Source of the DNA: Escherichia phage vB_EcoD-Elw
Sequence record: OR621298
DNA length: 64,000 bases
Direction: 5' to 3' (one strand)
The notes beneath the pieces are model-generated. The model worked only from the letters and a program-made list of their open reading frames with translations. It made no database searches and was not told the origin of the DNA. Position numbers and translations under genes: made by a program. Below are positions 289-14,226 of the stretch, piece after piece (position 1 is the first letter of the stretch; each line of letters opens with the position of its first letter).

Positions 289-2163
289 ATGAATCGTAAT
301 GAAGAACTAAAATATAAAGAAATGCAGGCGTTAATTAGAAACTGCAAAGAGATTATCGAAGGGTCAGCGGATGAAGAGCTGCTGTTTAATAATGCCAATA
401 AACCCTCAGAACGTTTCCCTACACAGAGGGATATGCTTGCAGGTGAATTGAGTAAGTATCTGATTCTAGAAGAAATGCCAATTCAGATTCGAAATGCTCA
501 TATGATTGGGGATATTCATTTCCATGATGCTGATTATGCTGCATTAGGCATGACTAATTGTTGTCTGGTAGCTCTGGAAGATATGTTGAAGAATGGTATG
601 AAGGTTGGTAATGCTGAAATTAGCACTCCAAACTCTATCACTACTGCAGCGGCTATTACTGCTCAGATTATCACTCAAGTTAGCTCCCATCAGTATGGGG
701 GCACTTCCGTGGATCGCCTTGATGAAGTATTAGCTCCTTATGTTCGTAAATCCTATGACAAAAATCATGCGTTTGCAAAACGTTGGACTAAGGATGAAGC
801 CAAAGCATCAGTAATGGCTACGGAGATGACTGAAAAAGAAGTCTATGACGCTTGTCAGGGTTTAGAATATGAAATCAATACCATGTTCAACTCTAATGGT
901 CAGAGTCCATTTATTACCTTTGGTTTTGGTCTAGGAACTTCTTGGGAAGCACGTCTAGTACAGAAAGCAATATTGAAAGTACGCATGGATGGTTTAGGTA
1001 TCAATAAACGTACAGCTATCTTCCCGAAACTGGTATTTGTACTTCGTGATGGCGTAAATATGAAACCAGGGGATGTTAGTTATGACATCAAGAAGTTAGC
1101 TATGAAATGTACTGCTGAACGTATGTATCCAGATTATATCAGCTATGACAAGGTTGTAGAAGTTACTGGAGACTATAAAGTTTCTATGGGCTGCCGTTCA
1201 TTCCTAGCTGCTACAGAAGATGGTGAAACTGCTGGTCGTAATAACTTAGGTGTTGTTTCTGTAAACTTGCCTAGAATTGCTATCGAAGCTGAAGGAAATA
1301 TTGATCTATTCTTTGATTTGCTTGAGCTACGTGTGGATACAGCGTTAAAAGCATTGGAGTGGAGAGTTGATCGCTTAAAATACATCCAAGCTAAAGCTGC
1401 ACCCATCCTCTATATGTCAGGAGCCTTTGGGTTACGCTTGGAGCCTGATGAATATGTATTCGATCATTTCTATAACCGTGCTTCTGTATCTCTAGGATAT
1501 ATTGGTTGCCATGAAATGCTACAGTTCATGTTTGGCAAAGATGTAGATACAATGTCCGAGACCTGCATCAAGTTTGTTCAGCGTGTGCTGCAGTACATGC
1601 GAGATAGAGTCGATCAGAAGAAGGAGGAGACTAAGTTAGGTTATAGCCTGTATGCTACACCGTCGGAATCCCTATGCGATCGTTTTTGTCGTCTAGACCG
1701 TGAATATTTCCCGGAGCATGAAGATATTCTGTCCAAAGGATACTACACTAACTCTCACCACCTTGATGTGGAACGTAAAGTTGCTCCCAACGTGAAATTT
1801 GATTATGAATCTAACTTTACTCCGATTGCTTCTGGTGGGTGTATTTCCTATGTAGAACTACCGGATATGAAACGATTCCCAGATGCACTAGAATGGGTTA
1901 TTAATTATGCTGCTAGTAAAGTTCATTACTTCGGTATTAATACTCCGGTGGATTCTTGTGGTAAATGTGGATTCTTAGGTGAAACAGTAGCATCCGAAGA
2001 TGGGTTTAAGTGCCCTATCTGTGGTAATCATGACCCCGAAACTCTTGAAGTAACTCGTCGAGTTTGTGGGTATCTTGGAAATCCAGGTGCTCGTCCATTT
2101 AACCCAGGCAAACAGCATGAGGTTATGGGCAGAGTGAAACATCAGGATATTCGAGCTAAATAA
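289..2163 (+). CDS. nrdD: anaerobic ribonucleoside-triphosphate reductase (class III RNR)
   Basis: 624 aa; C-terminal glycyl-radical motif RVCGYLG and Zn-ribbon CGKCGF...CPICG. Confidence 0.85.
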   Translation: MNRNEELKYKEMQALIRNCKEIIEGSADEELLFNNANKPSERFPTQRDMLAGELSKYLILEEMPIQIRNAHMIGDIHFHDADYAALGMTNCCLVALEDMLKNGMKVGNAEISTPNSITTAAAITAQIITQVSSHQYGGTSVDRLDEVLAPYVRKSYDKNHAFAKRWTKDEAKASVMATEMTEKEVYDACQGLEYEINTMFNSNGQSPFITFGFGLGTSWEARLVQKAILKVRMDGLGINKRTAIFPKLVFVLRDGVNMKPGDVSYDIKKLAMKCTAERMYPDYISYDKVVEVTGDYKVSMGCRSFLAATEDGETAGRNNLGVVSVNLPRIAIEAEGNIDLFFDLLELRVDTALKALEWRVDRLKYIQAKAAPILYMSGAFGLRLEPDEYVFDHFYNRASVSLGYIGCHEMLQFMFGKDVDTMSETCIKFVQRVLQYMRDRVDQKKEETKLGYSLYATPSESLCDRFCRLDREYFPEHEDILSKGYYTNSHHLDVERKVAPNVKFDYESNFTPIASGGCISYVELPDMKRFPDALEWVINYAASKVHYFGINTPVDSCGKCGFLGETVASEDGFKCPICGNHDPETLEVTRRVCGYLGNPGARPFNPGKQHEVMGRVKHQDIRAK

Positions 2164-2170
2164 GCTAATC

Positions 2171-2203
2171 AGCCGGGTTGCTAGTCGACCTGGCTTTTAT
2201 TTT
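2171..2203 (+). terminator. rho-independent terminator after nrdD
   Basis: 8-bp stem agccgggt/acctggct (one G-U pair) followed by a T-tract. Confidence 0.6.
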
Positions 2204-2205
2204 AT

Positions 2206-2234
2206 TTGCTTTCAGCCAAAAATTTATATATAAT
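2206..2234 (+). promoter_or_regulatory. early sigma70 promoter with conserved leader
   Basis: TTGCTT 2206-2211 and TATAAT 2229-2234, 17-bp spacer; leader ataaatttgagaggag precedes the ATG. Confidence 0.7.
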
Positions 2235-2262
2235 AGATTTATAAATTTGAGAGGAGAAAGAT

Positions 2263-2643
2263 ATGGAATTAAAGCACTATATAGTTGAATCTACATGTGG
2301 TAGTTTCCATCTGGGTGTAGATGATGTTGCTGAGGCTGTCTTTGCTGCCACAGGTGATTACTCGCATATAGAGGGTGTTGGATACCCTACCATTATTGGC
2401 GATTGGGTGGGAACAAATCTAGATGTATCACCTTATAACCCATATTGCTTGTTTGATGAAGACAGAGATGAAGTAAAATGTAATCTTGAATTTGTGTATA
2501 ATAGAGTGTTAAAAGTATACCAACGTAGCCCCAATGGGTACGAAGATATTACTTGGAGTATTAAACAGTATCTTAAAGATGTGTACTCTAGTTTTTCTGA
2601 CGAAGACCTAGAAACAGTTGCAGTGGAGTTTAATAATGACTAA
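2263..2643 (+). CDS. hypothetical early protein
   Basis: 126-aa ORF directly behind a strong promoter and RBS. Confidence 0.55.
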   Translation: MELKHYIVESTCGSFHLGVDDVAEAVFAATGDYSHIEGVGYPTIIGDWVGTNLDVSPYNPYCLFDEDRDEVKCNLEFVYNRVLKVYQRSPNGYEDITWSIKQYLKDVYSSFSDEDLETVAVEFNND

Positions 2644-2842: not shown

Positions 2843-3032
2843 GGGTTTAAACTCCGCTTTGGAAAACGCATTAATGCAGCACTGGGAAACTGGCTATAAG
2901 GATGGTGTTGAATCCTGCGCTACTATGCTAGAAGTTATTGCTAATACCTTAATGGAGAAAGGCAATAAAGAATTAGCTGAGCTATTAGACAGTATTGGGC
3001 AAAACTTCAGAGAACAGGTGAAAAATGCGTAG
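2811..3032 (+). CDS. hypothetical small protein
   Basis: 73-aa ORF in a tightly packed operon. Confidence 0.35.
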   Translation: MAFSKPMLPDKGLNSALENALMQHWETGYKDGVESCATMLEVIANTLMEKGNKELAELLDSIGQNFREQVKNA

Positions 3033-3849
3033 ATTAATTATTATTAGCGGTGCAGGTTTGAGTGTTGAAAGTGGTGTACGAGCTTTTCGTACTGATACTG
3101 CTAGTGGTAAAGCACTGTGGGATGATTATGATCTAGAAGAAGTATGTAATATTCATGCCTTTCGTGGTAATTTTTATCATAAAACCCATATGTTTTACAA
3201 CAAGCGTCGTGAAGAGCTAAAAACTGTTGAACCTAACCTTGCGCATCTTCGTATTGGTGAGTGGTATAAACAATACCCAGGTCAAGTAGTAAACTTGACT
3301 ACCAATGTTGATGACCTTATTGAACGTGCTGGCGTTCCACATAGTGACATTCTGCACATTCACGGATATTTAAAAGAGGTTGTTGTAGCTGACAGCTACA
3401 ATAGTAGTAATAAACGAATTATTGATGTTGGGTATAACTCTATTGACCCAGATGATTATAAATGGGTTAAACCTAATGTAATCTTCTTTGGTGAGCATGC
3501 TCCAGCATATACAGAAATGTACAATGTTTTTGATGGTATTACCAGTCAAGATATGATCATTGTGGTTGGTTGCTCTAACCAAGTAATTAACTTCTACTGG
3601 GAATTATTTCCTGTTCTTAATTTGACTGCTGCCAAATTAATGGTAGTTAACTACTATGATAGTGCCCTAGCGACAGAGCCGGGCTACCAAGGTATGACTC
3701 GTAGTGAGATGTACCAGCTGGAAGAACGCGGTATCCCTTACTGGAGTAAAGGGGCTGTAGATGCCTTCAGTGACCCTGATTTTATTGCTCGTGTAGAAGC
3801 TCATCTAGAGGGTAGACCTTATATGCCGGGGAAACAAATATGTCCATAA
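3025..3849 (+). CDS. SIR2-like NAD-binding protein without a Zn-ribbon
   Basis: Sirtuin motifs ISGAGLSVESGVRAFR, TTNVDDL, IHGY, KPNVIFFGE, VVGCS; no CxxC...CxxC pair. Confidence 0.6.
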   Translation: MRRLIIISGAGLSVESGVRAFRTDTASGKALWDDYDLEEVCNIHAFRGNFYHKTHMFYNKRREELKTVEPNLAHLRIGEWYKQYPGQVVNLTTNVDDLIERAGVPHSDILHIHGYLKEVVVADSYNSSNKRIIDVGYNSIDPDDYKWVKPNVIFFGEHAPAYTEMYNVFDGITSQDMIIVVGCSNQVINFYWELFPVLNLTAAKLMVVNYYDSALATEPGYQGMTRSEMYQLEERGIPYWSKGAVDAFSDPDFIARVEAHLEGRPYMPGKQICP

Positions 3850-4022
3850 TTAAATCTGTGTATACACACCCTGATGATATATTTGTATGGGCGGACGGTA
3901 GTTGGTGTTATCGCTGTGAGTTGTGGGAAATGGACTATAAATCCGATGACTATGGTGTTATATATGTGGATACGGTTGAGTATGATACGTTCTTAGAAAG
4001 GAACAAAAATGGAAATAAGTAA
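3840..4022 (+). CDS. hypothetical small protein
   Basis: 60-aa ORF, coupled starts. Confidence 0.3.
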   Translation: MSIIKSVYTHPDDIFVWADGSWCYRCELWEMDYKSDDYGVIYVDTVEYDTFLERNKNGNK

Positions 4023-4515
4023 TACTCCAATTATTTTTCTAGACATTGATGGGGTGCTCAATTCGAGCATCTCCCACCATCATGCACCTGATGATGAAAA
4101 GATTTTCTTTGGAAGTGACTGGGTTTTCAAACCACTTCTCAAGGCTTTTCAGGACTTTATTCGTCCTTCTCCGATAATGATTGTTGGAGTATCCTCATGG
4201 TTCTCTGTCAGGAATGAGATGGAGAACGTTCAGATTATGACCGGATTAGGTCTTATCGATCGTTTTCTTGGTACAACGGATTTTACCGGGGGTGGATTAT
4301 CTAGGGGTAATTCTGTTCTTCGCTTCGTTGAAAAGCATAAGCTCAAACATTGGTGTGTGCTGGATGATGCCGGTGCTATGATGTATCAGTATCCAACGGT
4401 TATAGTCAATGGTAGAACAGGAATAAATCTTCAGGATTTAAAAGCTGTTAGCTATATGCTAGAATTTAGCCCAGATCTTGAAATGTGTAAATCCTTACAA
4501 CAATTTAAGGTGTAA
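4009..4515 (+). CDS. HAD-like phosphatase (putative)
   Basis: N-terminal IIFLDIDGVLNS (HAD motif I) and a later LDDAG motif. Confidence 0.45.
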   Translation: MEISNTPIIFLDIDGVLNSSISHHHAPDDEKIFFGSDWVFKPLLKAFQDFIRPSPIMIVGVSSWFSVRNEMENVQIMTGLGLIDRFLGTTDFTGGGLSRGNSVLRFVEKHKLKHWCVLDDAGAMMYQYPTVIVNGRTGINLQDLKAVSYMLEFSPDLEMCKSLQQFKV

Positions 4516-4517
4516 AT

Positions 4518-4946
4518 ATGTTCAATAATGTATTCTCTAAAGAAGCTAACCCAATTTTGGTTAACTTTTGGCGTACTCTCCCGGCTAGCCTGTATAATGA
4601 GGCTATTAACTCCTTGAAAATATGGTGTGAGAATAACGAAATCTCCTTTGCTTTTAAAGATGATATTGATGAGGCCCCCTGTATTGGTCTAGTTGTGCAG
4701 GTAGAGGAGGGTCTTGAAGAGATTGTGGGCTGGAAAGAGTTAGACGAAATGGGCTTAGTTTTTGCGTTAAATTATAAGCTGTTTATGCCTGCTAAGCATC
4801 GCCTAGTTGTTAACTATAAAACTAGTGAATCTCCTGGTTTTCAGGTTAATGAACGTTATGGTTGGTCTTACTCACCGGAAGAAGTAAATGATGGTATCCA
4901 AAAACTTCGTCGTTTTGGTTATCAAATTCCGGGTTTAACCGCCTAA
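4518..4946 (+). CDS. hypothetical protein, tandem paralogue A
   Basis: 142 aa; shares DEAPCIGLVV, ELDEMGLVFALNY and YQIPGLT motifs with the next ORF. Confidence 0.5.
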   Translation: MFNNVFSKEANPILVNFWRTLPASLYNEAINSLKIWCENNEISFAFKDDIDEAPCIGLVVQVEEGLEEIVGWKELDEMGLVFALNYKLFMPAKHRLVVNYKTSESPGFQVNERYGWSYSPEEVNDGIQKLRRFGYQIPGLTA

Positions 4947-4955
4947 GGGGGCATA

Positions 4956-5348
4956 ATGGAACAAGTATATTGGCGTCAGATTGATCCTAGTTTGGTGAAG
5001 CGTGCGGAGAAGCTGCTACAACGTTGGTTGGTGGTAAGACAAGTCTCCTTCACTTTTCCGGAGCAGCAAACGGATGATCCATGCATTGGCGTTTTCCTGT
5101 CTGGATATGCCGGGGAATGGGAATTGGATTGGAATGAATTGTCTGCTATGGGCTTGATTGTTGCCCTAAACTTCTCTATATTCCATCCACGTGGTTTGGC
5201 CATATGTCGTGTGCCTGATGACGGTTGTTCGCCCCATCTTTTACAGGTGGAAGATGATATTTGGGAGTACACTCCAGATATTCTCGCAGAAGCTAAAGAA
5301 CAATTAAATCGTGTTGGGATTTATGTTCCGGGCTTAAATGATGGATGA
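4956..5348 (+). CDS. hypothetical protein, tandem paralogue B
   Basis: 130 aa; DDPCIGVF, ELSAMGLIVALNF and IYVPGLN motifs parallel the preceding ORF. Confidence 0.5.
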   Translation: MEQVYWRQIDPSLVKRAEKLLQRWLVVRQVSFTFPEQQTDDPCIGVFLSGYAGEWELDWNELSAMGLIVALNFSIFHPRGLAICRVPDDGCSPHLLQVEDDIWEYTPDILAEAKEQLNRVGIYVPGLNDG

Positions 5349-5468: not shown

Positions 5469-5965
5469 ATTTATATTGAATTGAGAGACATTAGTAAAAA
5501 TTGATTTTGCTAATTTTTCTTGTTTACAATCCGCGATACGGAACAGTTAGGCTGCCCCATTAAGGGTTGTTTTAACTATTACTAGTGTTTATATTGCATT
5601 AGTTAATCTTCAATTAAGTGATCTGTGTACCCTGAATTCGGAAAGGTAAATCCAAACCGTGCATATTTAGCTCGTTATATAGGCAGAGTTTTATATGGGG
5701 GTGCGAACGAAAAGAGCAGCGAATGGCGGCACGTACAGTAGTCACCTACCAATAGGATAGTGAGGACAAATAGAATCGGCTTAGCGGCCAATGACCTAGG
5801 TTCTATTCTGTATATGAGCGAAGAGAGCACAGCACTGAGATATGATAACTTATTCATATTGCTTGATGATAATTAATGTTTACGTAAATAGTAGTAATAG
5901 TTGTTCTATTCTTTCTGAATAGTCCTAAAGAAAAGATTTCGATTAACCAACACAGGAGTATTGTT

Positions 5966-8755
5966 GTGTTTTCTATTCTCCAAGGTCACGCCGGATTTTC
6001 TCGTGATTTAGCAACAGGTATTTGGCGAGAAATCAAAGCGGAAGATTATACCTTTGCCAAGCGATTCTCGAAAAAGCATCCAGAAGGTAAACCAGCTTCT
6101 ATGCCCTTCAAATTTGATGTAATAGAAGAGCATGACCCGCAAAGCCTTGCCGAAATGTTACCACTTATGAGACGTTTAACGTCTGACCCTCATATCGTTG
6201 CGGTACGAGGTCGATGTCTTGCACCTAAAAATAACGTGCGACGTAAGAAAGGTAACTTTAATGTATCTAATCCTAGTAATATTATTGCTATGGACGTGGA
6301 TGGTATCCTAGATACCGGTGGGTATGACAAGTTTAACCTTGTTGGTATGGCCCGCCACATTATTAAGATGTTGAATAGTATTAGTGAGGACATGTTCCCT
6401 CTTGATGCAGGCTTTATAGCTCATGCATCGTCTTCGGCTGGGCTTAAACCAGGTATCCGAATGCACTTAATGCTAGAATCTAACGTCAAGGTAACTCAGG
6501 GTCAGTTAAAGTTCTTATTTACATCTATCAACGATAGTAGTAAGCAAAAATTTGGTTTTGATATTGCCGACTTAGCTTATTATTCATCTGTCCAGCTCCA
6601 CTATTTTGCCGACCCCTTATTTAGTGATGGTATTGTTGATCCGTTTAAAGCGGAGAGTAAGCCACGTCTGGTGTATGTTAAAGGTTCGAAAGTAAATTTG
6701 CCCAATAATCTGGTTGACTATGAAACAACTAGAGGGGAGTTTAAGGAAGAGTTTTATTCTTTACTTGATCAAATTAAAGGCAAAAAGATCGCGTCTGATA
6801 AAGTAGAAGAAACCATCAGCGAATTGGAAGAAGCTGAGGATGGGGTGTACCTGCGTATTATCCCCAAACTATACCATAGAGCATTAGAGGATGGTGTTGA
6901 TTTTGCATGGCTAGAACGTGAGATTAAACCCGCTTTATCTGAATATATTGCAACTAAAGATAACAGTCGTAATATTCAAGATTACTTTAATAACGGTCGT
7001 AAGCAGGCTCTCAAAGCGTTTGTTAATAATTCTAAACGTGAGATTCCATTAAATCTGAAAGGTGTTCCGCTCAAGAAGTTAGAAGTGGATTCTCCACCAG
7101 AAGTTCCGTACCTGAAGATTAACATTGTGCCTCCAAAAGGCCATATAACATTTGTTAAGGCAAGTCTTGGTACTGGTAAAACTACGGCAGTAACTAAATG
7201 GCTGGACGCAGGTGTTCTTCCTGGCAACTTTTTAGCAGTTACAAATACTAGAGCACTGGTATCTTCAAACGCTAAGAAATTTAGCGCAGGACAATATGAT
7301 AAGTCTGTAGATATGCTCAACTTTAAACGTGGAGCTATTGATCGTATGTCCACAACTATTCACTCTTTGCATAAGTTCAAAAGTTTTATTGGTCAAATAG
7401 ATACCATTTTTATTGATGAATGTGATGCTGTAATGAATGATCTATTATTCGCACCTGTTGTTAAGCAACGTCGCGAATGTATTCAAGTTCTACGTGACAT
7501 CCTCATGACAGCTAAAACTGTAATTCTATCAGATGGTGATATTAGTGCCGAAACTATTGAAGCATATGGTTCTCTAATTGATTTTGATAAACCAGTAGCA
7601 TTTTATAATCATCACCGTAAGATGCTGTCAAAAGCTCATGCTTATGAGTTCCCGGATGAGTCCAGTATTTGGGTTGCACTTCAGACTTCTCTAGAGATGG
7701 GTGAGAAATCTATCCTAGTATCTGATTGTGGGCCGGATGAACTGAATGAGAAGGGCATGGCGTTGCGTCGTAATACGGGTGCATTAGTTAAGGAAATCCA
7801 CTCAAACTCTACGTCTGATGTAGATATTAGACGTATTCTGGATTACACAACTAATGAGCTAATTGACCAACAAATTGATTGCTTATTATGTAGTCCATCT
7901 GTAACGAGTGGTGTTGACTTTAACTATTTTGATAACGTATTCGTTATCACTAGAACTAGCAACCAAGCGCCAAACATGCGTTTCCAAGCAATCAGGCGCG
8001 ACCGTGGTGCTCAGAATATCTATTATTTTATTGATAAATCCACTAGTGGGTTCTCCGCAGGTTCTGAACAATATAATATTGATGAAGGTTGGCTGGAGTT
8101 AGCACAGCAATTATACGCACGTCGCAGAGAACTAGAATCTAGGAACTATACTAGTACTTTACGTTATTACTTGCTTGATCAGGGTGCAACTATTGATATT
8201 TTCAGCGAAAGCTGGGGAACTATTGAAGGTGCTGGTAAAGAATACACAGAAGAGCGAATCAAAGCTATCCTACATTCAACTCCGGATTACTGTGCACCAC
8301 GTCATGCGGATGCGTATGAGGCTAAACTACTTCTTGTTCGCTATTATCATCTTGAGTCTATTAAAGATGTAACAGTTGAGCATGTTGAACAATATATCAA
8401 AGATAAACCGAATGATCGAGCTGCATTCTTCCATAAGATGCACGAGATGTTCTGGGAAGATATTAAGAAGTGTTCAAATGTGACCATTAAACCATTCATA
8501 GAGGCTCTGAAAGGTAAGAAGAAAGACTTCTTCCTTAAAACAGGTCAGAGTGCTAACCCAAAATATGCTAGAATGTATCTTGGTATGATGGGTATTGGTA
8601 AGGATATGAACACTGAAAATATTGTAGACTGGTACAGAACCTATTGTAAAATCGAGTGTATGCCAATCCCATATAAGTTTATGACTGATGAGGAGAAACA
8701 TATGCATGATGAAGCAATGGCAGAGCTAGGTGCTAGAAATGACAGTGAAGAATAA
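5966..8755 (+). CDS. P-loop NTPase, putative helicase or replication-initiation ATPase
   Basis: 929 aa; Walker A SLGTGKTTAV and DEAD-like IFIDECD; GTG start with AGGAG RBS. Confidence 0.55.
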   Translation: MFSILQGHAGFSRDLATGIWREIKAEDYTFAKRFSKKHPEGKPASMPFKFDVIEEHDPQSLAEMLPLMRRLTSDPHIVAVRGRCLAPKNNVRRKKGNFNVSNPSNIIAMDVDGILDTGGYDKFNLVGMARHIIKMLNSISEDMFPLDAGFIAHASSSAGLKPGIRMHLMLESNVKVTQGQLKFLFTSINDSSKQKFGFDIADLAYYSSVQLHYFADPLFSDGIVDPFKAESKPRLVYVKGSKVNLPNNLVDYETTRGEFKEEFYSLLDQIKGKKIASDKVEETISELEEAEDGVYLRIIPKLYHRALEDGVDFAWLEREIKPALSEYIATKDNSRNIQDYFNNGRKQALKAFVNNSKREIPLNLKGVPLKKLEVDSPPEVPYLKINIVPPKGHITFVKASLGTGKTTAVTKWLDAGVLPGNFLAVTNTRALVSSNAKKFSAGQYDKSVDMLNFKRGAIDRMSTTIHSLHKFKSFIGQIDTIFIDECDAVMNDLLFAPVVKQRRECIQVLRDILMTAKTVILSDGDISAETIEAYGSLIDFDKPVAFYNHHRKMLSKAHAYEFPDESSIWVALQTSLEMGEKSILVSDCGPDELNEKGMALRRNTGALVKEIHSNSTSDVDIRRILDYTTNELIDQQIDCLLCSPSVTSGVDFNYFDNVFVITRTSNQAPNMRFQAIRRDRGAQNIYYFIDKSTSGFSAGSEQYNIDEGWLELAQQLYARRRELESRNYTSTLRYYLLDQGATIDIFSESWGTIEGAGKEYTEERIKAILHSTPDYCAPRHADAYEAKLLLVRYYHLESIKDVTVEHVEQYIKDKPNDRAAFFHKMHEMFWEDIKKCSNVTIKPFIEALKGKKKDFFLKTGQSANPKYARMYLGMMGIGKDMNTENIVDWYRTYCKIECMPIPYKFMTDEEKHMHDEAMAELGARNDSEE

Positions 8756-8980: not shown

Positions 8981-9009
8981 TTGCTTTCAGGAAAAATTTT
9001 CTGTATAAT
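8981..9009 (+). promoter_or_regulatory. early sigma70 promoter with conserved leader
   Basis: TTGCTT 8981-8986 and TATAAT 9004-9009, 17-bp spacer; leader ataaatttgagagaggag. Confidence 0.7.
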
Positions 9010-10887: not shown

Positions 10888-11196
10888 ATGAGCGAACAGG
10901 TAAATCAAAACTATGAAGGACACGTTGATGACCAGTCCATCATACTTTGGGAGAAGGAGGGGGAACAAGTAAGATTAACAGTATCTGAATTTCGTGGGAA
11001 TCTATACATGGGTATTCGTTACTGGCTTCTTGATATTAATGATGAATGGTTTCCAACGAAATCTGGCTTCTCTTTTCCTTACACCCTAGAAACAACATCA
11101 CAGCTTTTCTATGCGTTTACACAGATTCTTAGCGAATCTGAGGTTTTACATGAAGTACAGAAACGAGCTGAAGAACTCAAAGCCAAGAATGCCTAG
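10888..11196 (+). CDS. hypothetical protein
   Basis: 102-aa ORF. Confidence 0.5.
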   Translation: MSEQVNQNYEGHVDDQSIILWEKEGEQVRLTVSEFRGNLYMGIRYWLLDINDEWFPTKSGFSFPYTLETTSQLFYAFTQILSESEVLHEVQKRAEELKAKNA

Positions 11197-11212
11197 TTCT
11201 TGGCTTTTTCTT
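11180..11212 (+). terminator. rho-independent terminator
   Basis: 10-bp stem aagccaagaa/ttcttggctt followed by a T-tract; the stop codon sits in the loop. Confidence 0.7.
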
Positions 11213-11223
11213 TATAAATGTAT

Positions 11224-11252
11224 TTGCTTTCAACTCAGTTTTGTTATATAAT
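11224..11252 (+). promoter_or_regulatory. early sigma70 promoter with conserved leader
   Basis: TTGCTT 11224-11229 and TATAAT 11247-11252, 17-bp spacer; leader tatttatataaattgataag. Confidence 0.7.
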
Positions 11253-11281
11253 ATTTATATAAATTGATAAGAGGATCAATT

Positions 11282-11470
11282 ATGAAAGTAACACTTCCAA
11301 AAATTCAAGCAAAGTTAAATCTAGTATCGAATGCTAGAAATAACTATCTAGATAACTTTGGTGGAATCAACGATAAAGCGTACAAAGATGCGTGGTTGAA
11401 AGAAGCACAAGAGTTAGCCGATCTCATTGCTCAGTATAATAAAGAACTACAGGTAGAAATGAATGACTAA
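11282..11470 (+). CDS. hypothetical small protein
   Basis: ATG at 11282 with AGAGGA RBS; the ORF track begins at an upstream TTG. Confidence 0.45.
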   Translation: MKVTLPKIQAKLNLVSNARNNYLDNFGGINDKAYKDAWLKEAQELADLIAQYNKELQVEMND

Positions 11471-12434
11471 TGTAAAAGACTTTATTAAACGTTGCCAAGA
11501 AGCATATTATCAAGGTATGTCTTTAATCTCTGATGAGGAGTATGATTGCCTGGTAAAACGCTTCCCACTAGAAGAAGAGATCGGGCCTAAGGGCGATATT
11601 CCACATCTGTATCGTATGTATTCTTTACAGAAAGTTTATTATAATCGTGGAGATAAACCCCCATTTAACCCATTAGGTCAGGTAGAAACTGACAAGTTAG
11701 ATGGTTGTGCGATTTCTCTACTATATATTAATGGCGAATTTGTTCAAGCACTAACTCGTGGTAATGGTATTCTAGGGAATGATGTCACAAGCAACGTAAG
11801 ATTGCTGAACATTCCTAAAAAGATTTCCCAAAAAGTACCTACTCAAATCACTGGTGAAGTTCTAATTACAAAAGAAGTAGAAAATAAACGTAACTTTGCC
11901 TCTGGTGCTATTAACCTAAAAGATAGTGATGCTTTCGTACAACGTATCGGGGAAGGTGGTTTAATCTTCGTTGCATACGGTATCCAGTGTTCTGCTGAAT
12001 CTGTAGGTATTACAGAATCATATTTAAAAGATATGCTTTGGCTAGAGAATGAAGACTTCTTAACAGTTGTTAATGTGCGTTCCTTCTTTAGATGGATTCC
12101 GACGGACGGTAAAGTTGTTCGTATTAATGACAACAACAAATTCTTCCGAGAAGGCTGGACTAATAAATTCCCTCGCGGGGCGTTCGCTATTAAAGAGGAT
12201 GAAGAAGGAGAGATTACAACTCTTACTAAAGTTGAATGGCAGGTAGGGGCTTCTGGTAAAGTAACTCCAGTTGGTTATTTCGAACCGGTAATTATTGATG
12301 ATGCTACAATTGTTAAAGCGACTCTTAATAACGTTGATTATATTAACTCTCTCGATCTAGAGATCGGTTGCCAGATTCGAGTGATTCGTGCTGGTGGTGT
12401 AATCCCGTGCATAGTAGAGCGAGTATACTATTAA
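11463..12434 (+). CDS. NAD-dependent DNA ligase, N-terminal adenylation subunit (split ligase)
   Basis: 323 aa; KxDG adenylation motif in TDKLDGCAISLLY; a separate ORF carries the C-terminal ligase domains. Confidence 0.6.
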   Translation: MTNVKDFIKRCQEAYYQGMSLISDEEYDCLVKRFPLEEEIGPKGDIPHLYRMYSLQKVYYNRGDKPPFNPLGQVETDKLDGCAISLLYINGEFVQALTRGNGILGNDVTSNVRLLNIPKKISQKVPTQITGEVLITKEVENKRNFASGAINLKDSDAFVQRIGEGGLIFVAYGIQCSAESVGITESYLKDMLWLENEDFLTVVNVRSFFRWIPTDGKVVRINDNNKFFREGWTNKFPRGAFAIKEDEEGEITTLTKVEWQVGASGKVTPVGYFEPVIIDDATIVKATLNNVDYINSLDLEIGCQIRVIRAGGVIPCIVERVYY

Positions 12435-12484
12435 TACATAACCCTTTGCTACCCATCTACCATATAGGAATTATAAAGTGGTTA

Positions 12485-12513
12485 TTGACATTTTCGCCGC
12501 TTAGGTATATACT
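12485..12513 (+). promoter_or_regulatory. sigma70 promoter in the ligase intergenic region
   Basis: TTGACA 12485-12490 and TATACT 12508-12513, 17-bp spacer. Confidence 0.5.
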
Positions 12514-12577
12514 ATTATCATTCAGTTGAGGGATAGAAAGTTATGGCGAGGGTAAGCAAAGTTAGTTAAAATTGTAG

Positions 12578-12606
12578 TTGCTAAATGCTTAAATACTTGC
12601 TATAAT
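12578..12606 (+). promoter_or_regulatory. early sigma70 promoter with conserved leader
   Basis: TTGCTA 12578-12583 and TGcTATAAT ending at 12606; leader tatttatataaattgataag. Confidence 0.65.
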
Positions 12607-12636
12607 ATTTATATAAATTGATAAGGAAGAAATTTG

Positions 12637-13416
12637 ATGAAAATCGAAATTCCAACACAATGTCCCTCTTGTGGTTCTAAGCTAGATCTTGTCAACGGAC
12701 AATTATTCTGTCGTAATAAGTCCAACTGTCCAGCGCAATCAAGCAAGTTAATTGAGAACTTCTGTTCAAAAATGAAGTTAAAGGGCTTTGGCCCAAAAAC
12801 TATTGAGAAGCTGGAGCTGACGAAGATTTCAGAACTATTTTACCTAACCGAAGAAGATTTGGTTAGAGCCGTGGGTAGCAAGGTTGCCGCTAAGTTAATT
12901 AGCGAATTAAATACTAAAGTTCGCGGAGACATTGACTTTGGTTCAGTTCTCGGTTCTTTAGGAATCCCTCTAATTGGAGAGGTTGCAGCAAAGAAATTAT
13001 CCCAAAATTGCACTAGCTTTCACGATGTGAAGGCTGACGGCAAGGCTGGAGAAAATTACAAAGCCTGGCTAAATTCCCCACAAGGCAAGGATGTTATTAA
13101 ACTACCGTGGAAATTTTCAACTGGTATTAAGGGCACTAAAGCTGACGTCATCATTACAGATGAATTAGTTGCCCAGCCAAATGGAATCGCGGTATGTATT
13201 ACCGGATCTTTGCAAGATTTTGCAAATCGAACGGATGCAACAAACTATTTAGAAGGTCTAGGATATACGGTTAAGAAATCCGTTACCAAAGACGTCAAAT
13301 ACCTAATCTGTGAGGATGAATCAAAACGTTCTTCCTCATCTTATAAGAAAGCCGAAACGAATGGGATAGAAATCCTGTCGATTAAAGAACTATTGGAGAA
13401 AAATAATAATGTCTAA
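12637..13416 (+). CDS. NAD-dependent DNA ligase, C-terminal subunit (Zn-finger/HhH/BRCT-like)
   Basis: Cys4 cluster CPSCGSK...CRNKSNCPAQ near the N-terminus; ATG at 12637 with AAGGAAG RBS. Confidence 0.55.
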   Translation: MKIEIPTQCPSCGSKLDLVNGQLFCRNKSNCPAQSSKLIENFCSKMKLKGFGPKTIEKLELTKISELFYLTEEDLVRAVGSKVAAKLISELNTKVRGDIDFGSVLGSLGIPLIGEVAAKKLSQNCTSFHDVKADGKAGENYKAWLNSPQGKDVIKLPWKFSTGIKGTKADVIITDELVAQPNGIAVCITGSLQDFANRTDATNYLEGLGYTVKKSVTKDVKYLICEDESKRSSSSYKKAETNGIEILSIKELLEKNNNV

Positions 13417-14176
13417 ACTGAACTGGAACGTAGAAGGTGTAACCGAGTCTCTGAAAGCAAAAGCCACTGCTCTGGGTGTTTCTGTAATCTCTCAAGAACA
13501 GGTAGCTGCTATCGCTGCTGAACTGGCTGCTGAAACTGGCAAAGATGTTACTGCTCGCTCTGTTGGCTCTAAACTGCGTAAAGAAGGTTTTGAAGTACAG
13601 AAAGCTAACGAAGTACAGAAATCCCCGTGGACTCCTGAGCAGGAAGCTGAACTGGTTGATTTCCTGAACGCTCATGCTGGTCAGTATACCTATGCTGAAA
13701 TCGCTGCTGCTGTAGCTGGTGGTCAGTTCGGTGCTAAGCAGGTACAGGGTAAGATCCTGAGTCTGGAAATGACCGCTTCTGTTAAACCAACTGAAAAAGC
13801 TGCTGCTGTTCGTTCCTTTACTCCGGATGAAGAAACTGATTTTGTTAATCAGGTTGTTGCTGGTGCTACTATTGAAGCTATCGCTGCTCACTTCGGCCGC
13901 AATATCAAGCAGATCCGTGGTAAAGCTCTGAGCCTGCTTCGTGAAGGTCGTATTGCTGCTATGCCGGTACAGGAAACTTCAAGTGCTAAAACTCGTGAAG
14001 ATCTGTTAGAAGGTCTGGATCTGGTTAACATGACTGTTGCTGAGATCGCTGAGAAAACCGGTAAGTCTGAGCGTGGTGTTAAATCTATGCTGTCTCGTCG
14101 TGGTCTGGTTGCTAAGGACTATGATGGTGCCGCTAAGCGTGCTAAACTGGATGCAAAAGCTGCGGCTGCTGAATAA
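13409..14176 (+). CDS. abundant early protein with four tandem HTH-like repeats
   Basis: 255 aa; repeated E(I/A)A...G(K/R)...(V/I)(K/R)...LS motifs; strongly host-optimal codons. Confidence 0.5.
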   Translation: MSKLNWNVEGVTESLKAKATALGVSVISQEQVAAIAAELAAETGKDVTARSVGSKLRKEGFEVQKANEVQKSPWTPEQEAELVDFLNAHAGQYTYAEIAAAVAGGQFGAKQVQGKILSLEMTASVKPTEKAAAVRSFTPDEETDFVNQVVAGATIEAIAAHFGRNIKQIRGKALSLLREGRIAAMPVQETSSAKTREDLLEGLDLVNMTVAEIAEKTGKSERGVKSMLSRRGLVAKDYDGAAKRAKLDAKAAAAE

Positions 14177-14195
14177 TCTGGTAAATTAAACCTAA

Positions 14196-14226
14196 GGGGA
14201 GGGGGCTATGCTCCTTCCCCTTTTTG
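14196..14226 (+). terminator. rho-independent terminator
   Basis: ggggaggggg-ctatg-ctccttcccc stem (with G-U pairs) followed by ttttt. Confidence 0.65.

Follow-up and report, generated by a model that had tools for sequence, protein, structure and literature searches.

The two-gene NAD-dependent DNA ligase (ligA/ligB) of T5-like phages has already been described, and for a relative its structure is known. The T5 genome paper (Wang et al., 2005, Virology 332:45, cited in PMC1684257 and PMC3632103) already included the split ligase of T5. The solved enzyme is that of phage PR1, which belongs to a different genus of the family; it was released on 2026-01-14 as 'PR1 phage heterodimeric DNA ligase in complex with 21-mer nicked DNA' (PDB 9hu3 and 9i5i) and has one chain of 339 residues and one of 248, the halves being assembled on nicked DNA. 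The two-polypeptide layout is the defining difference of the T5-type ligase subfamily, whereas bacterial LigA (E. coli 2owo; T. filiformis 1dgs and 1v9p) is a single chain of about 670 aa. LigN-deltaC, the Ia-adenylation-OB fragment of another NAD+ ligase, self-adenylates but cannot ligate (PMC1684257), which explains the need for a second chain.

The window analysed here, a stretch of 64,000 nucleotides of Escherichia phage vB_EcoD-Elw (OR621298), comes from a T5-like phage of the Demerecviridae. Comparison with T5 (ligA, T5.116, AAU05253; ligB, T5.117, AAU05254) showed that the genes, their order, the 202-bp gap, the promoters P-K28b and P-K28a and the downstream D5 gene were all equal to those of the window (Table 1), and the DNA of the ligase locus was 97–98% identical to that of the closest T5-like genomes. 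T5 had no counterpart of the 62-aa ORF of the window, and its promoter abuts ligA; otherwise, only point differences were found. The PR1 ligase had the same domain division, and its chains A and B were each 56% identical over their full length to the products of the window; PR1 LigA carried a few small insertions, and PR1 LigB was 11 residues shorter in the HhH–BRCT linker. The locus was thus read as a heterodimeric NAD+-dependent DNA ligase typical of T5-like phages, derived from an ancestral single-chain LigA-type gene cut exactly where the OB fold is linked to the Zn finger (probability about 0.93).

Table 1. Positions of the features of the ligase locus in the window
Feature	Position	Strand	Description	Basis
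Promoter of the ligA transcription unit	11224–11252	+	TTGCTT-17-TATAAT, T5 early class	pattern match
25-nt segment (-10 box and initial transcribed region)	11247–11271	+	TATAATATTTATATAAATTGATAAG; identical copy at 12601–12625, before ligB	
Small upstream ORF	11282–11470	+	62 aa from ATG 11282; 68 aa from TTG 11264	
ligA	11463–12434	+	323 aa; short domain Ia, nucleotidyltransferase (adenylation) domain, OB fold	Pfam, PDB match; = T5.116 ligA
Variable part of spacer	12435–12469	+	slot of inserted genes in relatives	nucleotide diversity
Promoter P-K28b core	12485–12513	+	TTGACA-17-TATACT	11/12 consensus match; T5 RefSeq feature
Promoter P-K28a core	12578–12606	+	TTGCTA-17-TATAAT, TG-extended	10/12 consensus match; T5 RefSeq feature
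Shine-Dalgarno of ligB	12623–12629	+	AAGGAAG, 7 nt before ATG 12637	read from sequence
ligB	12637–13416	+	259 aa; C4 zinc finger, HhH domain, BRCT domain	Pfam, PDB match; = T5.117 ligB
D5-type DNA-binding protein gene	13409–14176	+	start overlaps ligB stop	= T5.118 D5
Terminator-like hairpin, end of ligB-D5 unit	14194–14222	+	13 pairs, 8 G-C, T tail	

The initial annotation, made from the letters alone, had placed an adenylation half with a KxDG motif in the first ORF and a Zn-finger/HhH/BRCT half in the second, and the domain searches assigned ligase domains to both. In the ligA product, Pfam detected the adenylation domain (DNA_ligase_aden, PF01653, E 1.3e-23), with the match beginning at residue 47, and the OB domain (DNA_ligase_OB, PF03120, E 4e-22, residues 252–321). 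The KxDG motif was K78-L-D-G (nt 11694–11705). Alignment with E. coli LigA paired K78/D80/G81 with K115/D117/G118, R99 with R136, E132 with E173, D215-G216 with D285-G286, and K244 with K314, while R220 stood where E. coli LigA has K290. The lysine of KxDG and motifs III, IV, and V were therefore all present, and these residues were invariant across 7 genera. The ligA product matched PDB 9hu3_A (E 1.9e-102) and could be aligned to E. coli and T. filiformis LigA as far as about residue 389–392.

The start of ligB was set at ATG 12637 rather than at TTG 12634 of the mechanical ORF, because the solved homologue and all annotated relatives begin with MKI. In its product, BRCT (PF00533, E 8.9e-8) scored 32.7 bits against a curated cutoff of 21.3, and HhH was sub-threshold in Pfam (HHH_2, 24.5 bits; gathering cutoff 27). 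C9, C12, C25, and C31 aligned with the zinc cysteines C408, C411, C426, and C432 of E. coli LigA and were invariant among relatives. The ligB product matched PDB 9hu3_B (E 1.2e-80) and aligned with residues 402–666 of E. coli LigA. An AlphaFold model of LigB (pLDDT 86.8) matched 9hu3_B and the C-terminal half of LigA, and was superposed on that half of E. coli LigA 2owo with a Foldseek E of 4.7e-7. The pair of the window and single-chain bacterial LigA thus have the same domain order (Ia-NTase-OB-Zn-HhH-BRCT) and share the catalytic lysine, the motif residues and the four zinc cysteines; however, the chain of the phage enzyme is interrupted at the OB/Zn linker, and the enzyme totals 582 aa (about 90 shorter), with domain Ia and the NTase domain both reduced in length and only 25–27% identity to the bacterial enzyme.

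In domain Ia of E. coli LigA, the NMN-binding residues Y22, H23, D32, Y35, and D36 give specificity for NAD+. Domain Ia of the phage LigA was short and lay outside the Pfam match; it read A-Y15-Y16 ... S-D24-E-E-Y27-D28, compared with RYY...SDAEYD in T. filiformis, a stretch that is below significance when taken alone. Y15, Y27, and D28 were invariant in the T5-type family, and D24 was replaced by N in some members. Family membership and the motif AYY...SDEEYD make NAD+ the likely cofactor of the LigA/LigB pair, as had been proposed, and the depositors of 9hu3 named that homologue 'DNA ligase (NAD(+))'. The initial annotation had also tied the ligase to a SIR2-like gene through this cofactor. 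A SIR2-family ORF is found at 3025–3849, 7.6 kb upstream of the ligase locus in a separate transcription unit, and both use NAD, but nothing was found that shows a functional link between them.

Gene layout among relatives, which had been suggested as a check, was compared in 80 related viral loci fetched from IMG/VR. In 75 of the 80, the ligA match was at least 41% identical, and 72 of these 75 had both halves. Together with 7 phage records, this gave 79 loci with both halves and ligA identity of at least 41%, and the break point was identical in all of them. It fell between the OB fold and the Zn finger, in their linker; in the window, LigA stops near E. coli residue 392 and LigB begins near residue 400. 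The window carried the T5-type signature: LigA ended in ...GG[VI]IPxIV..., LigB started with MKIxIPTxCPxCG, the genes were adjacent on the same strand, and ligB was preceded by promoters of its own and followed by D5. No fused relative was found within the family; the fused genes that turned up either had 31% identity or less (L082) or belonged to jumbo phages. The best 120 LigB homologues were all 190–263 aa, far below the length of a fused ligase; 118 of them were 247–263 aa, and the other two were truncated entries of 214 and 190 aa.

Nucleotide diversity at codon positions 1, 2, and 3 was 0.031, 0.014, and 0.156 in ligA and 0.029, 0.011, and 0.092 in ligB, a pattern that clearly indicates purifying selection on both genes. 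A decaying pseudogene pair, in which the ligase gene is broken and the host LigA does the work, might be imagined from the facts that bacterial LigA is typically one chain, that E. coli has an NAD+ ligase of its own and that stop codons occur in every frame of the spacer. However, third-position diversity was 8–11 times second-position diversity in the two halves, the catalytic and zinc-binding residues were all invariant, and the break point was kept in hundreds of phage genomes whose hosts are Escherichia, Salmonella, Klebsiella, Proteus, Providencia, Vibrio, and Aeromonas. In addition, ligB had its own ribosome-binding site, ATG and promoters, and the structure of the homologous pair shows an active-site complex with nicked DNA. 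The probability of a broken gene is next to nil, conservation having effectively refuted it.

Members of the LigA family carry all domains on one polypeptide, whereas the ligase of the window was divided between two ORFs that differ in frame and lie 202 bp from each other. This spacer (12435–12636) was equal in length in T5 and nearly all close relatives. It contained 7, 5, and 6 stop codons across the three frames, and ligB lay in the +1 frame relative to ligA. Phages are known for ways of making one product from a divided gene, such as the bypass in T4 gene 60 and the group I introns of T4 and T5-like phages. A fused polypeptide could in principle be made here by translational bypass or frameshift, by RNA splicing of an intron or by protein splicing, and the P-K28b leader RNA of the window forms a strong hairpin that folds unusually well (z = -3.7). 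Against this, each frame had 5–7 stops and the frame of ligB differed from that of ligA, no intron or other family of Rfam was matched in 11000–13800, and no intein-like sequence was seen, both proteins aligning with LigA end to end with nothing extra. The gap of relatives ranged from 58 bp to 3.8 kb and held ordinary genes in some of them, and the solved homologue has two chains. Fusion is therefore exceedingly improbable.

A spacer of about 200 bp with two promoters had been noticed initially, and its sites coincided with features named 'promoter P-K 28b' and 'promoter P-K 28a' in the T5 RefSeq annotation, from which the names P-K28b and P-K28a were taken. The P-K28b feature of T5 (66366–66440) corresponded to 12465–12539 of the window, and the P-K28a feature (66459–66533) to 12558–12632. 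A sigma-70 consensus scan of the whole 3.5-kb region gave 9 sites versus 8.9 expected from shuffles, and since there was no enrichment, the scan by itself proves nothing; P-K28b and P-K28a were its two top scores, both on the coding strand. The P-K28b core was kept in Sugarland, Pectobacterium-type, Providencia-type, Proteus, and Aeromonas phages. P-K28a showed zero diversity among 28 T5-like loci, and an equivalent promoter lay ahead of ligB in every lineage examined. Nucleotide diversity was 0.048 in the variable part of the spacer versus 0.004 in the remainder. The promoter block (12470–12636) was 20–35 times less variable than the synonymous sites of the flanking genes and less variable than even their second codon positions, making it the most conserved part of the locus.

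Other elements of the spacer were also considered. RNAalifold on seven genera gave no consensus pairs in the P-K28b leader, and the individual leader folds of relatives had z values of -0.5 to -2.1, none significant. The Rfam search of 11000–13800 (E ≤ 1) returned a chance miRNA match inside ligB alone, and no intron or structured-RNA family. A mini-ORF (MARVSKVS, 12543–12569, behind a GAGGGA box) was rejected as a coding element; its peptide was not kept in other genera, and the few substitutions within T5-like phages were all non-synonymous. In several genera, a hairpin overlapped or abutted the -35 box of P-K28a.

Some relatives carried cargo genes in the ligA–ligB gap (GIY-YIG, NADAR, and DprA-like); in L029 and L039, the GIY-YIG and NADAR genes were inserted at the position of the variable part of the spacer. 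Other phages also have genes in pieces: in Aeromonas phage Aeh1, nrdA is split by a homing-endonuclease gene, and in T4 the topoisomerase subunits gp39 and gp60 are another case. As with ligA/ligB, two adjacent genes there encode what is usually a single-chain enzyme, and their products reassemble; the gap can hold a mobile endonuclease gene, as does the gap of the T5-like locus L029 with its GIY-YIG gene. Unlike those cases, the ligase split is fixed in a whole phage family, and the gap of the window holds promoters and no endonuclease.

Upstream, T5 RefSeq marks a 'promoter' feature immediately before ligA, and this feature contained a sequence identical to the ligA promoter of the window. 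A terminator-like hairpin (11179–11207) precedes the ligA promoter. The 25-nt segment had only two copies in the 64 kb at up to 3 mismatches, with 0 expected by chance. As a family-wide device it was rejected: it was present in T5-like phages including T5 and was not found in Sugarland, Proteus, Providencia, Vibrio, or Aeromonas relatives. The stop of the small upstream ORF overlapped the ligA start by 8 nt; the ORF had no Pfam match, and the annotation of Klebsiella phage KPP2018 lists it as a hypothetical protein. Downstream, the order ligB-D5 was found in all annotated relatives, and the overlap of the D5 start with the ligB stop points to co-transcription of D5 from the spacer promoters.

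In the proposed transcript structure, a TTGCT-class early promoter would transcribe the small ORF and ligA, with no terminator after ligA, and the tandem early promoters P-K28b and P-K28a would yield further transcripts covering ligB and D5, whose translation is coupled to that of ligB, and ending at the downstream terminator. With two extra promoters for ligB, LigA and LigB need not be made in equal amounts. The two extra promoters are not explained by a simple obligate 1:1 complex.

It could also be supposed that the two products act independently, LigA as a minimal stand-alone ligase of the Chlorella-virus NTase-OB type and LigB as a BRCT/HhH scaffold or DNA-binding factor tied to D5. Consistent with this, strong promoters of its own transcribe ligB with D5 and not strictly with ligA, up to 3.8 kb of unrelated genes separate the two genes in relatives, and expression is not necessarily stoichiometric. 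In E. coli LigA, domain deletions have shown that the zinc finger and HhH domains are required for nick joining, which counts against independent action. Furthermore, ligA and ligB co-occurred wherever both could be scored, PDB 9hu3 is explicitly a heterodimer on DNA, and the Ia-NTase-OB fragment of LigN self-adenylates without ligating (PMC1684257). Independent action is accordingly judged very unlikely.

The preferred reading, a heterodimeric ligase, agrees with the initial proposal that a functional enzyme must assemble from two chains, which the structure of the PR1 homologue supports. In the likely mechanism, LigA (Ia, adenylation, OB) would react with NAD+ to form a covalent AMP adduct on K78, and LigB (Zn finger, HhH, BRCT) would provide the DNA-binding half. 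The two would associate non-covalently around a nick, and AMP transfer and sealing would be carried out by both chains, for lagging-strand joining and for repair of the nicks typical of T5-type genomes. At 56% identity, the pair of the window would be expected to assemble and ligate as the PR1 enzyme does.

The low variability of the promoter block, the shared 25-nt segment, the P-K28b leader hairpin and the hairpin at the -35 box of P-K28a suggested a further, rather doubtful reading of the junction. It may be a fixed 'cargo slot plus tandem promoter block', an undescribed functional module, and the split could persist because it lets the dose or timing of LigB and D5 differ from that of LigA. 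Further control might come from an RNA or operator element in the spacer, and the split might, purely hypothetically, have originated by insertion of a mobile endonuclease.

The raw-sequence reading correctly caught a real and unusual enzyme architecture. The division of a ligase at an interdomain linker, with reassembly from two chains, is relevant to enzyme engineering, and the split architecture bears on how T5-type phages handle nicked genomes. Three comparative facts are added here: the break point does not vary across the whole family, accessory genes insert into the gap, and no part of the locus is more conserved than the promoter block. They may help, to a modest extent, in understanding T5 gene expression or the evolution of 'genes in pieces'.

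The ORF scan and Pfam search showed that the NAD-dependent DNA ligase of vB_EcoD-Elw is encoded by two ORFs on the same strand, ligA (ORF1) and ligB (ORF2). ORF1 matched two Pfam domains of NAD-dependent DNA ligases, the adenylation domain (E 1.3e-23) and the OB fold (E 4e-22); in ORF2, BRCT was over the curated cutoff and HhH slightly under it. Alignment to solved bacterial LigA structures placed K78-L-D-G on K115-x-D-G of E. coli LigA, and E132, D215-G216 and K244 of ORF1 on E173, D285-G286 and K314. The ORF1 C-terminus fell at about E. coli residue 392 and the ORF2 N-terminus at about residue 400, and C9, C12, C25 and C31 of ORF2 corresponded to the zinc cysteines C408, C411, C426 and C432. 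Judged from these positions, the ligase is cut cleanly in the linker between OB fold and zinc finger, with all domains present. A short domain Ia at the ORF1 N-terminus (motif AYY...SDEEYD) aligned with the NMN-binding residues of LigA; this stretch alone was below significance and lay outside the Pfam match. The division into an adenylation half and a zinc-finger/HhH/BRCT half, proposed in the initial annotation, was borne out, including the ligase domains of the second ORF on which it depended.

Features of the split ligase locus, its neighbourhood and related loci
Feature	Position	Strand	Remark
SIR2-family ORF	3025-3849		E 6.9e-25; matches T5.102
DUF7415 proteins	4518-4946, 4956-5348		3' of T5.105 counterpart
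Terminator-like hairpin	11179-11207		upstream of ligA-unit promoter
ligA-unit promoter	11224-11252		TTGCTT-17-TATAAT; pattern match; 3' of hairpin
62-aa ORF	11282-11470		no Pfam match; between promoter and ligA
ORF1 (ligA)	11463-12434	+	323 aa; Pfam matches
P-K 28b (T5 RefSeq, mapped)	12465-12539		contains TTGACA-17-TATACT at 12485-12513
P-K 28a (T5 RefSeq, mapped)	12558-12632		contains TTGCTA-17-TATAAT at 12578-12606
ORF2 (ligB)	12637-13416	+	starts with ATG; Pfam BRCT, HhH
D5 homologue start	13409		ATG; overlaps ligB stop (TAA 13414-13416)
Strong terminator	14194-14222		3' of D5 homologue
Gap gene, L029 (T5-like)	5950-6606		GIY-YIG endonuclease
Gap gene, L039 (Proteus-type)	5953-6609		NADAR-domain protein
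Gap gene, Vibrio phage Gary and kin (L004)	1386-2344		DprA-like protein
Gap genes, L075/L076 (metagenomic)	L075 5918-9750		T5orf172 proteins and several enzymes, about 3.8 kb

ORF2 started at ATG 12637, not at TTG 12634, with AAGGAAG upstream at 12623-12629; the spacer, put at 200 bp before, is therefore 202 bp long. It held 5-7 stop codons per frame, and the reading frame of ligB was +1 to that of ligA, which rules out simple read-through. A pseudogene pair was excluded by the diversity at codon positions 1/2/3 among 28 T5-like loci, 0.031/0.014/0.156 in ligA and 0.029/0.011/0.092 in ligB, a pattern indicating purifying selection on both genes.

Six further genera of the family (phage records) and 80 IMG/VR loci were compared by locating both halves in each. 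Identity in the ligA match was 41% or higher for 75 IMG/VR loci, and both halves were seen in 72 of them; with seven loci from phage records, this gave 79 scorable loci. In all 79 the halves were separate genes with the same break point, LigA ending in ...GG[VI]IPxIV... and LigB starting with MKIxIPTxCPxCG. Fused genes were confined to jumbo phages and to distant relatives with an identity of no more than 31% (L082). The best 120 database homologues of LigB were all too short for a fused ligase (118 were 247-263 aa long; the other two, of 214 and 190 aa, were truncated entries). The window locus was 97.8% identical to phage NBEco001. It matched 447 phage records, and almost all of these were T5-like phages of Salmonella and Escherichia. 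In Salmonella phage rokbiter (NC_048868.1, 50889-51689), the ligB match was 801 nt vs 777 nt and overlay an annotated 'repeat_region' feature; it may reflect a repeat that has expanded in frame within the linker joining HhH and BRCT.

In a marine metagenomic clade the two genes were 58 bp apart. Several lineages, T5-like phages and Sugarland among them, had a gap of 107-202 bp; it measured 344 bp in PM135, a Proteus phage, and 437-1374 bp in Vibrio phages, while two metagenomic contigs had 3.8 kb. The larger gaps held ordinary genes, and in relatives the gap serves accessory genes as a landing site. Because the inserted gene of L029 and L039 sits between the ligA stop and a retained promoter block, the locus can be described as ligA, a variable slot, tandem promoters and ligB.

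The split ligase is already known. A 2013 paper placed ligA (AAU05253) and ligB (AAU05254) in the map of the T5 replication region, and in the genome note for phage Stitch (2015) the A and B subunits were described as needed to seal T5-type genome nicks. PDB entries 9hu3 and 9i5i contain a chain A of 339 aa, 'DNA ligase (NAD(+))', matching ORF1 at E 1.9e-102, and a chain B of 248 aa, 'DNA ligase subunit B', matching ORF2 at E 1.2e-80, each 56% identical to the window proteins; 9hu3_B was also the best structural match to the ORF2 model (pLDDT 86.8). Entry 9hu3, released 2026-01-14, is titled 'PR1 phage heterodimeric DNA ligase in complex with 21-mer nicked DNA containing phage nick sequence'. 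The earlier expectation that a functional ligase assembles from two chains is realised in this structure, and by analogy the window pair, whose domain content, break point and conservation were established here, would also assemble and depend on NAD+. By homology with LigA, the phage LigA would take AMP from NAD+ onto K78, a step supported by the archaeal LigN Ia-NTase-OB fragment, which self-adenylates and joins no DNA (PMC1684257). LigB would supply the domains that hold the DNA (zinc finger, HhH, BRCT), and both chains would jointly clamp the nick, in the manner of the PR1 structure, before it is sealed.

The shared NAD cofactor had also been taken to tie the ligase to a SIR2-like gene. The cofactor is indeed common, but the SIR2-family ORF lies 7.6 kb from the ligase genes in another transcription unit, and a shared cofactor is no evidence of a functional tie. 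The T5 RefSeq names T5.105 'Sir2 (NAD-dependent deacetylase)'; its window counterpart (4009-4515) matched Pfam HAD_SAK_2, the HAD domain of Swiss-Army-Knife RNA repair proteins (E 4e-20), not SIR2, and the true SIR2-family ORF is the one at 3025-3849.

The two promoters reported in the spacer agreed with the T5 RefSeq, in which ligA (T5.116) and ligB (T5.117) are separated by 202 bp carrying 'promoter P-K 28b' and 'promoter P-K 28a'; both consensus-scan sites were exactly those inside the mapped T5 features. The scan of the whole region gave no enrichment over shuffled sequence, so the promoters rest on position, conservation and T5 annotation, not on the scan. Among the 28 T5-like loci, diversity was 0.048 over the initial 35 nt of the spacer. 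In the promoter block (12470-12636) it was 0.004, below second codon positions (0.011-0.014) and compared with 0.09-0.16 at third positions, and no other part of the locus was as conserved; P-K28a showed zero variation. Most of this conservation can be explained by the size of T5 promoters, annotated as 75-bp units that begin in A/T-rich upstream sequence and extend into transcribed sequence; the two units leave only about 18 nt uncovered. Tandem promoters with 86-96 nt between -35 boxes were kept in Sugarland, L038 (Pectobacterium-type), L042 (Providencia-type) and PM135. In the Aeromonas locus the first promoter alone passed the scan, and a second, weaker one was read by eye.

RNA from P-K28b was predicted to fold (12520-12620) as a hairpin, long and imperfect (-26.1 kcal/mol, z = -3.7), in which the segment between the promoters pairs with the -10/spacer region of P-K28a. 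In PM135 (L003 2410-2450) a perfect 10-bp inverted repeat, CTTAGCAAGT-N13-ACTTGCTAAG, overlaps the -35 box of the second promoter, as does an 8-bp one in Sugarland (L002 2408-2450). Neither consensus structure nor covariation was found for the hairpin among the relatives examined; it could act in processing or stabilising the RNA, or serve as an operator. Between the promoters, a mini-ORF (12543-12569, ATG GCG AGG GTA AGC AAA GTT AGT TAA, MARVSKVS) follows a GAGGGA box; L042 has a different one, MADKPDGNE, in the same place, and the peptide was not conserved across the relatives compared.

A 25-nt stretch, TATAATATTTATATAAATTGATAAG, comprising the -10 box and about the first 19 transcribed nt, was identical at the ligA-unit promoter (11247-11271) and P-K28a (12601-12625), with no further copy in the 64-kb window. 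Nearly the same sequence lies upstream of ligA in T5, and other genera are without it; through this repeat, the mRNAs of the two subunits could be made equal in initiation or in their 5' UTR. Promoters of the T5 early class, TTGCT-N17-19-TATAAT, were strongly enriched in the window (9 found vs 0.42 expected), for example at 2206, 8981, 10007, 11224, 12578, 16590, 21171 and 52896; the site at 8981-9009 is at the position of the T5 RefSeq feature P-N 25.

The unit runs in the order hairpin, promoter, 62-aa ORF, ligA, P-K28b, P-K28a, ligB, D5 homologue and terminator, and the hairpin scan of the region found no terminator between ligA and the spacer promoters. The stop of the 62-aa ORF overlaps the ligA start (ATGAATGACTAA); this ORF is present in most close relatives and missing from T5 itself, whose promoter abuts ligA. 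The ligB stop overlaps the D5 start, implying that translation of LigB and of the DNA-binding protein D5 is coupled. Since ligB and the D5 homologue run on to the terminator, the spacer promoters serve D5 too, and this may chiefly account for how strong they are. It also means that the amounts of LigA and LigB need not be equal.
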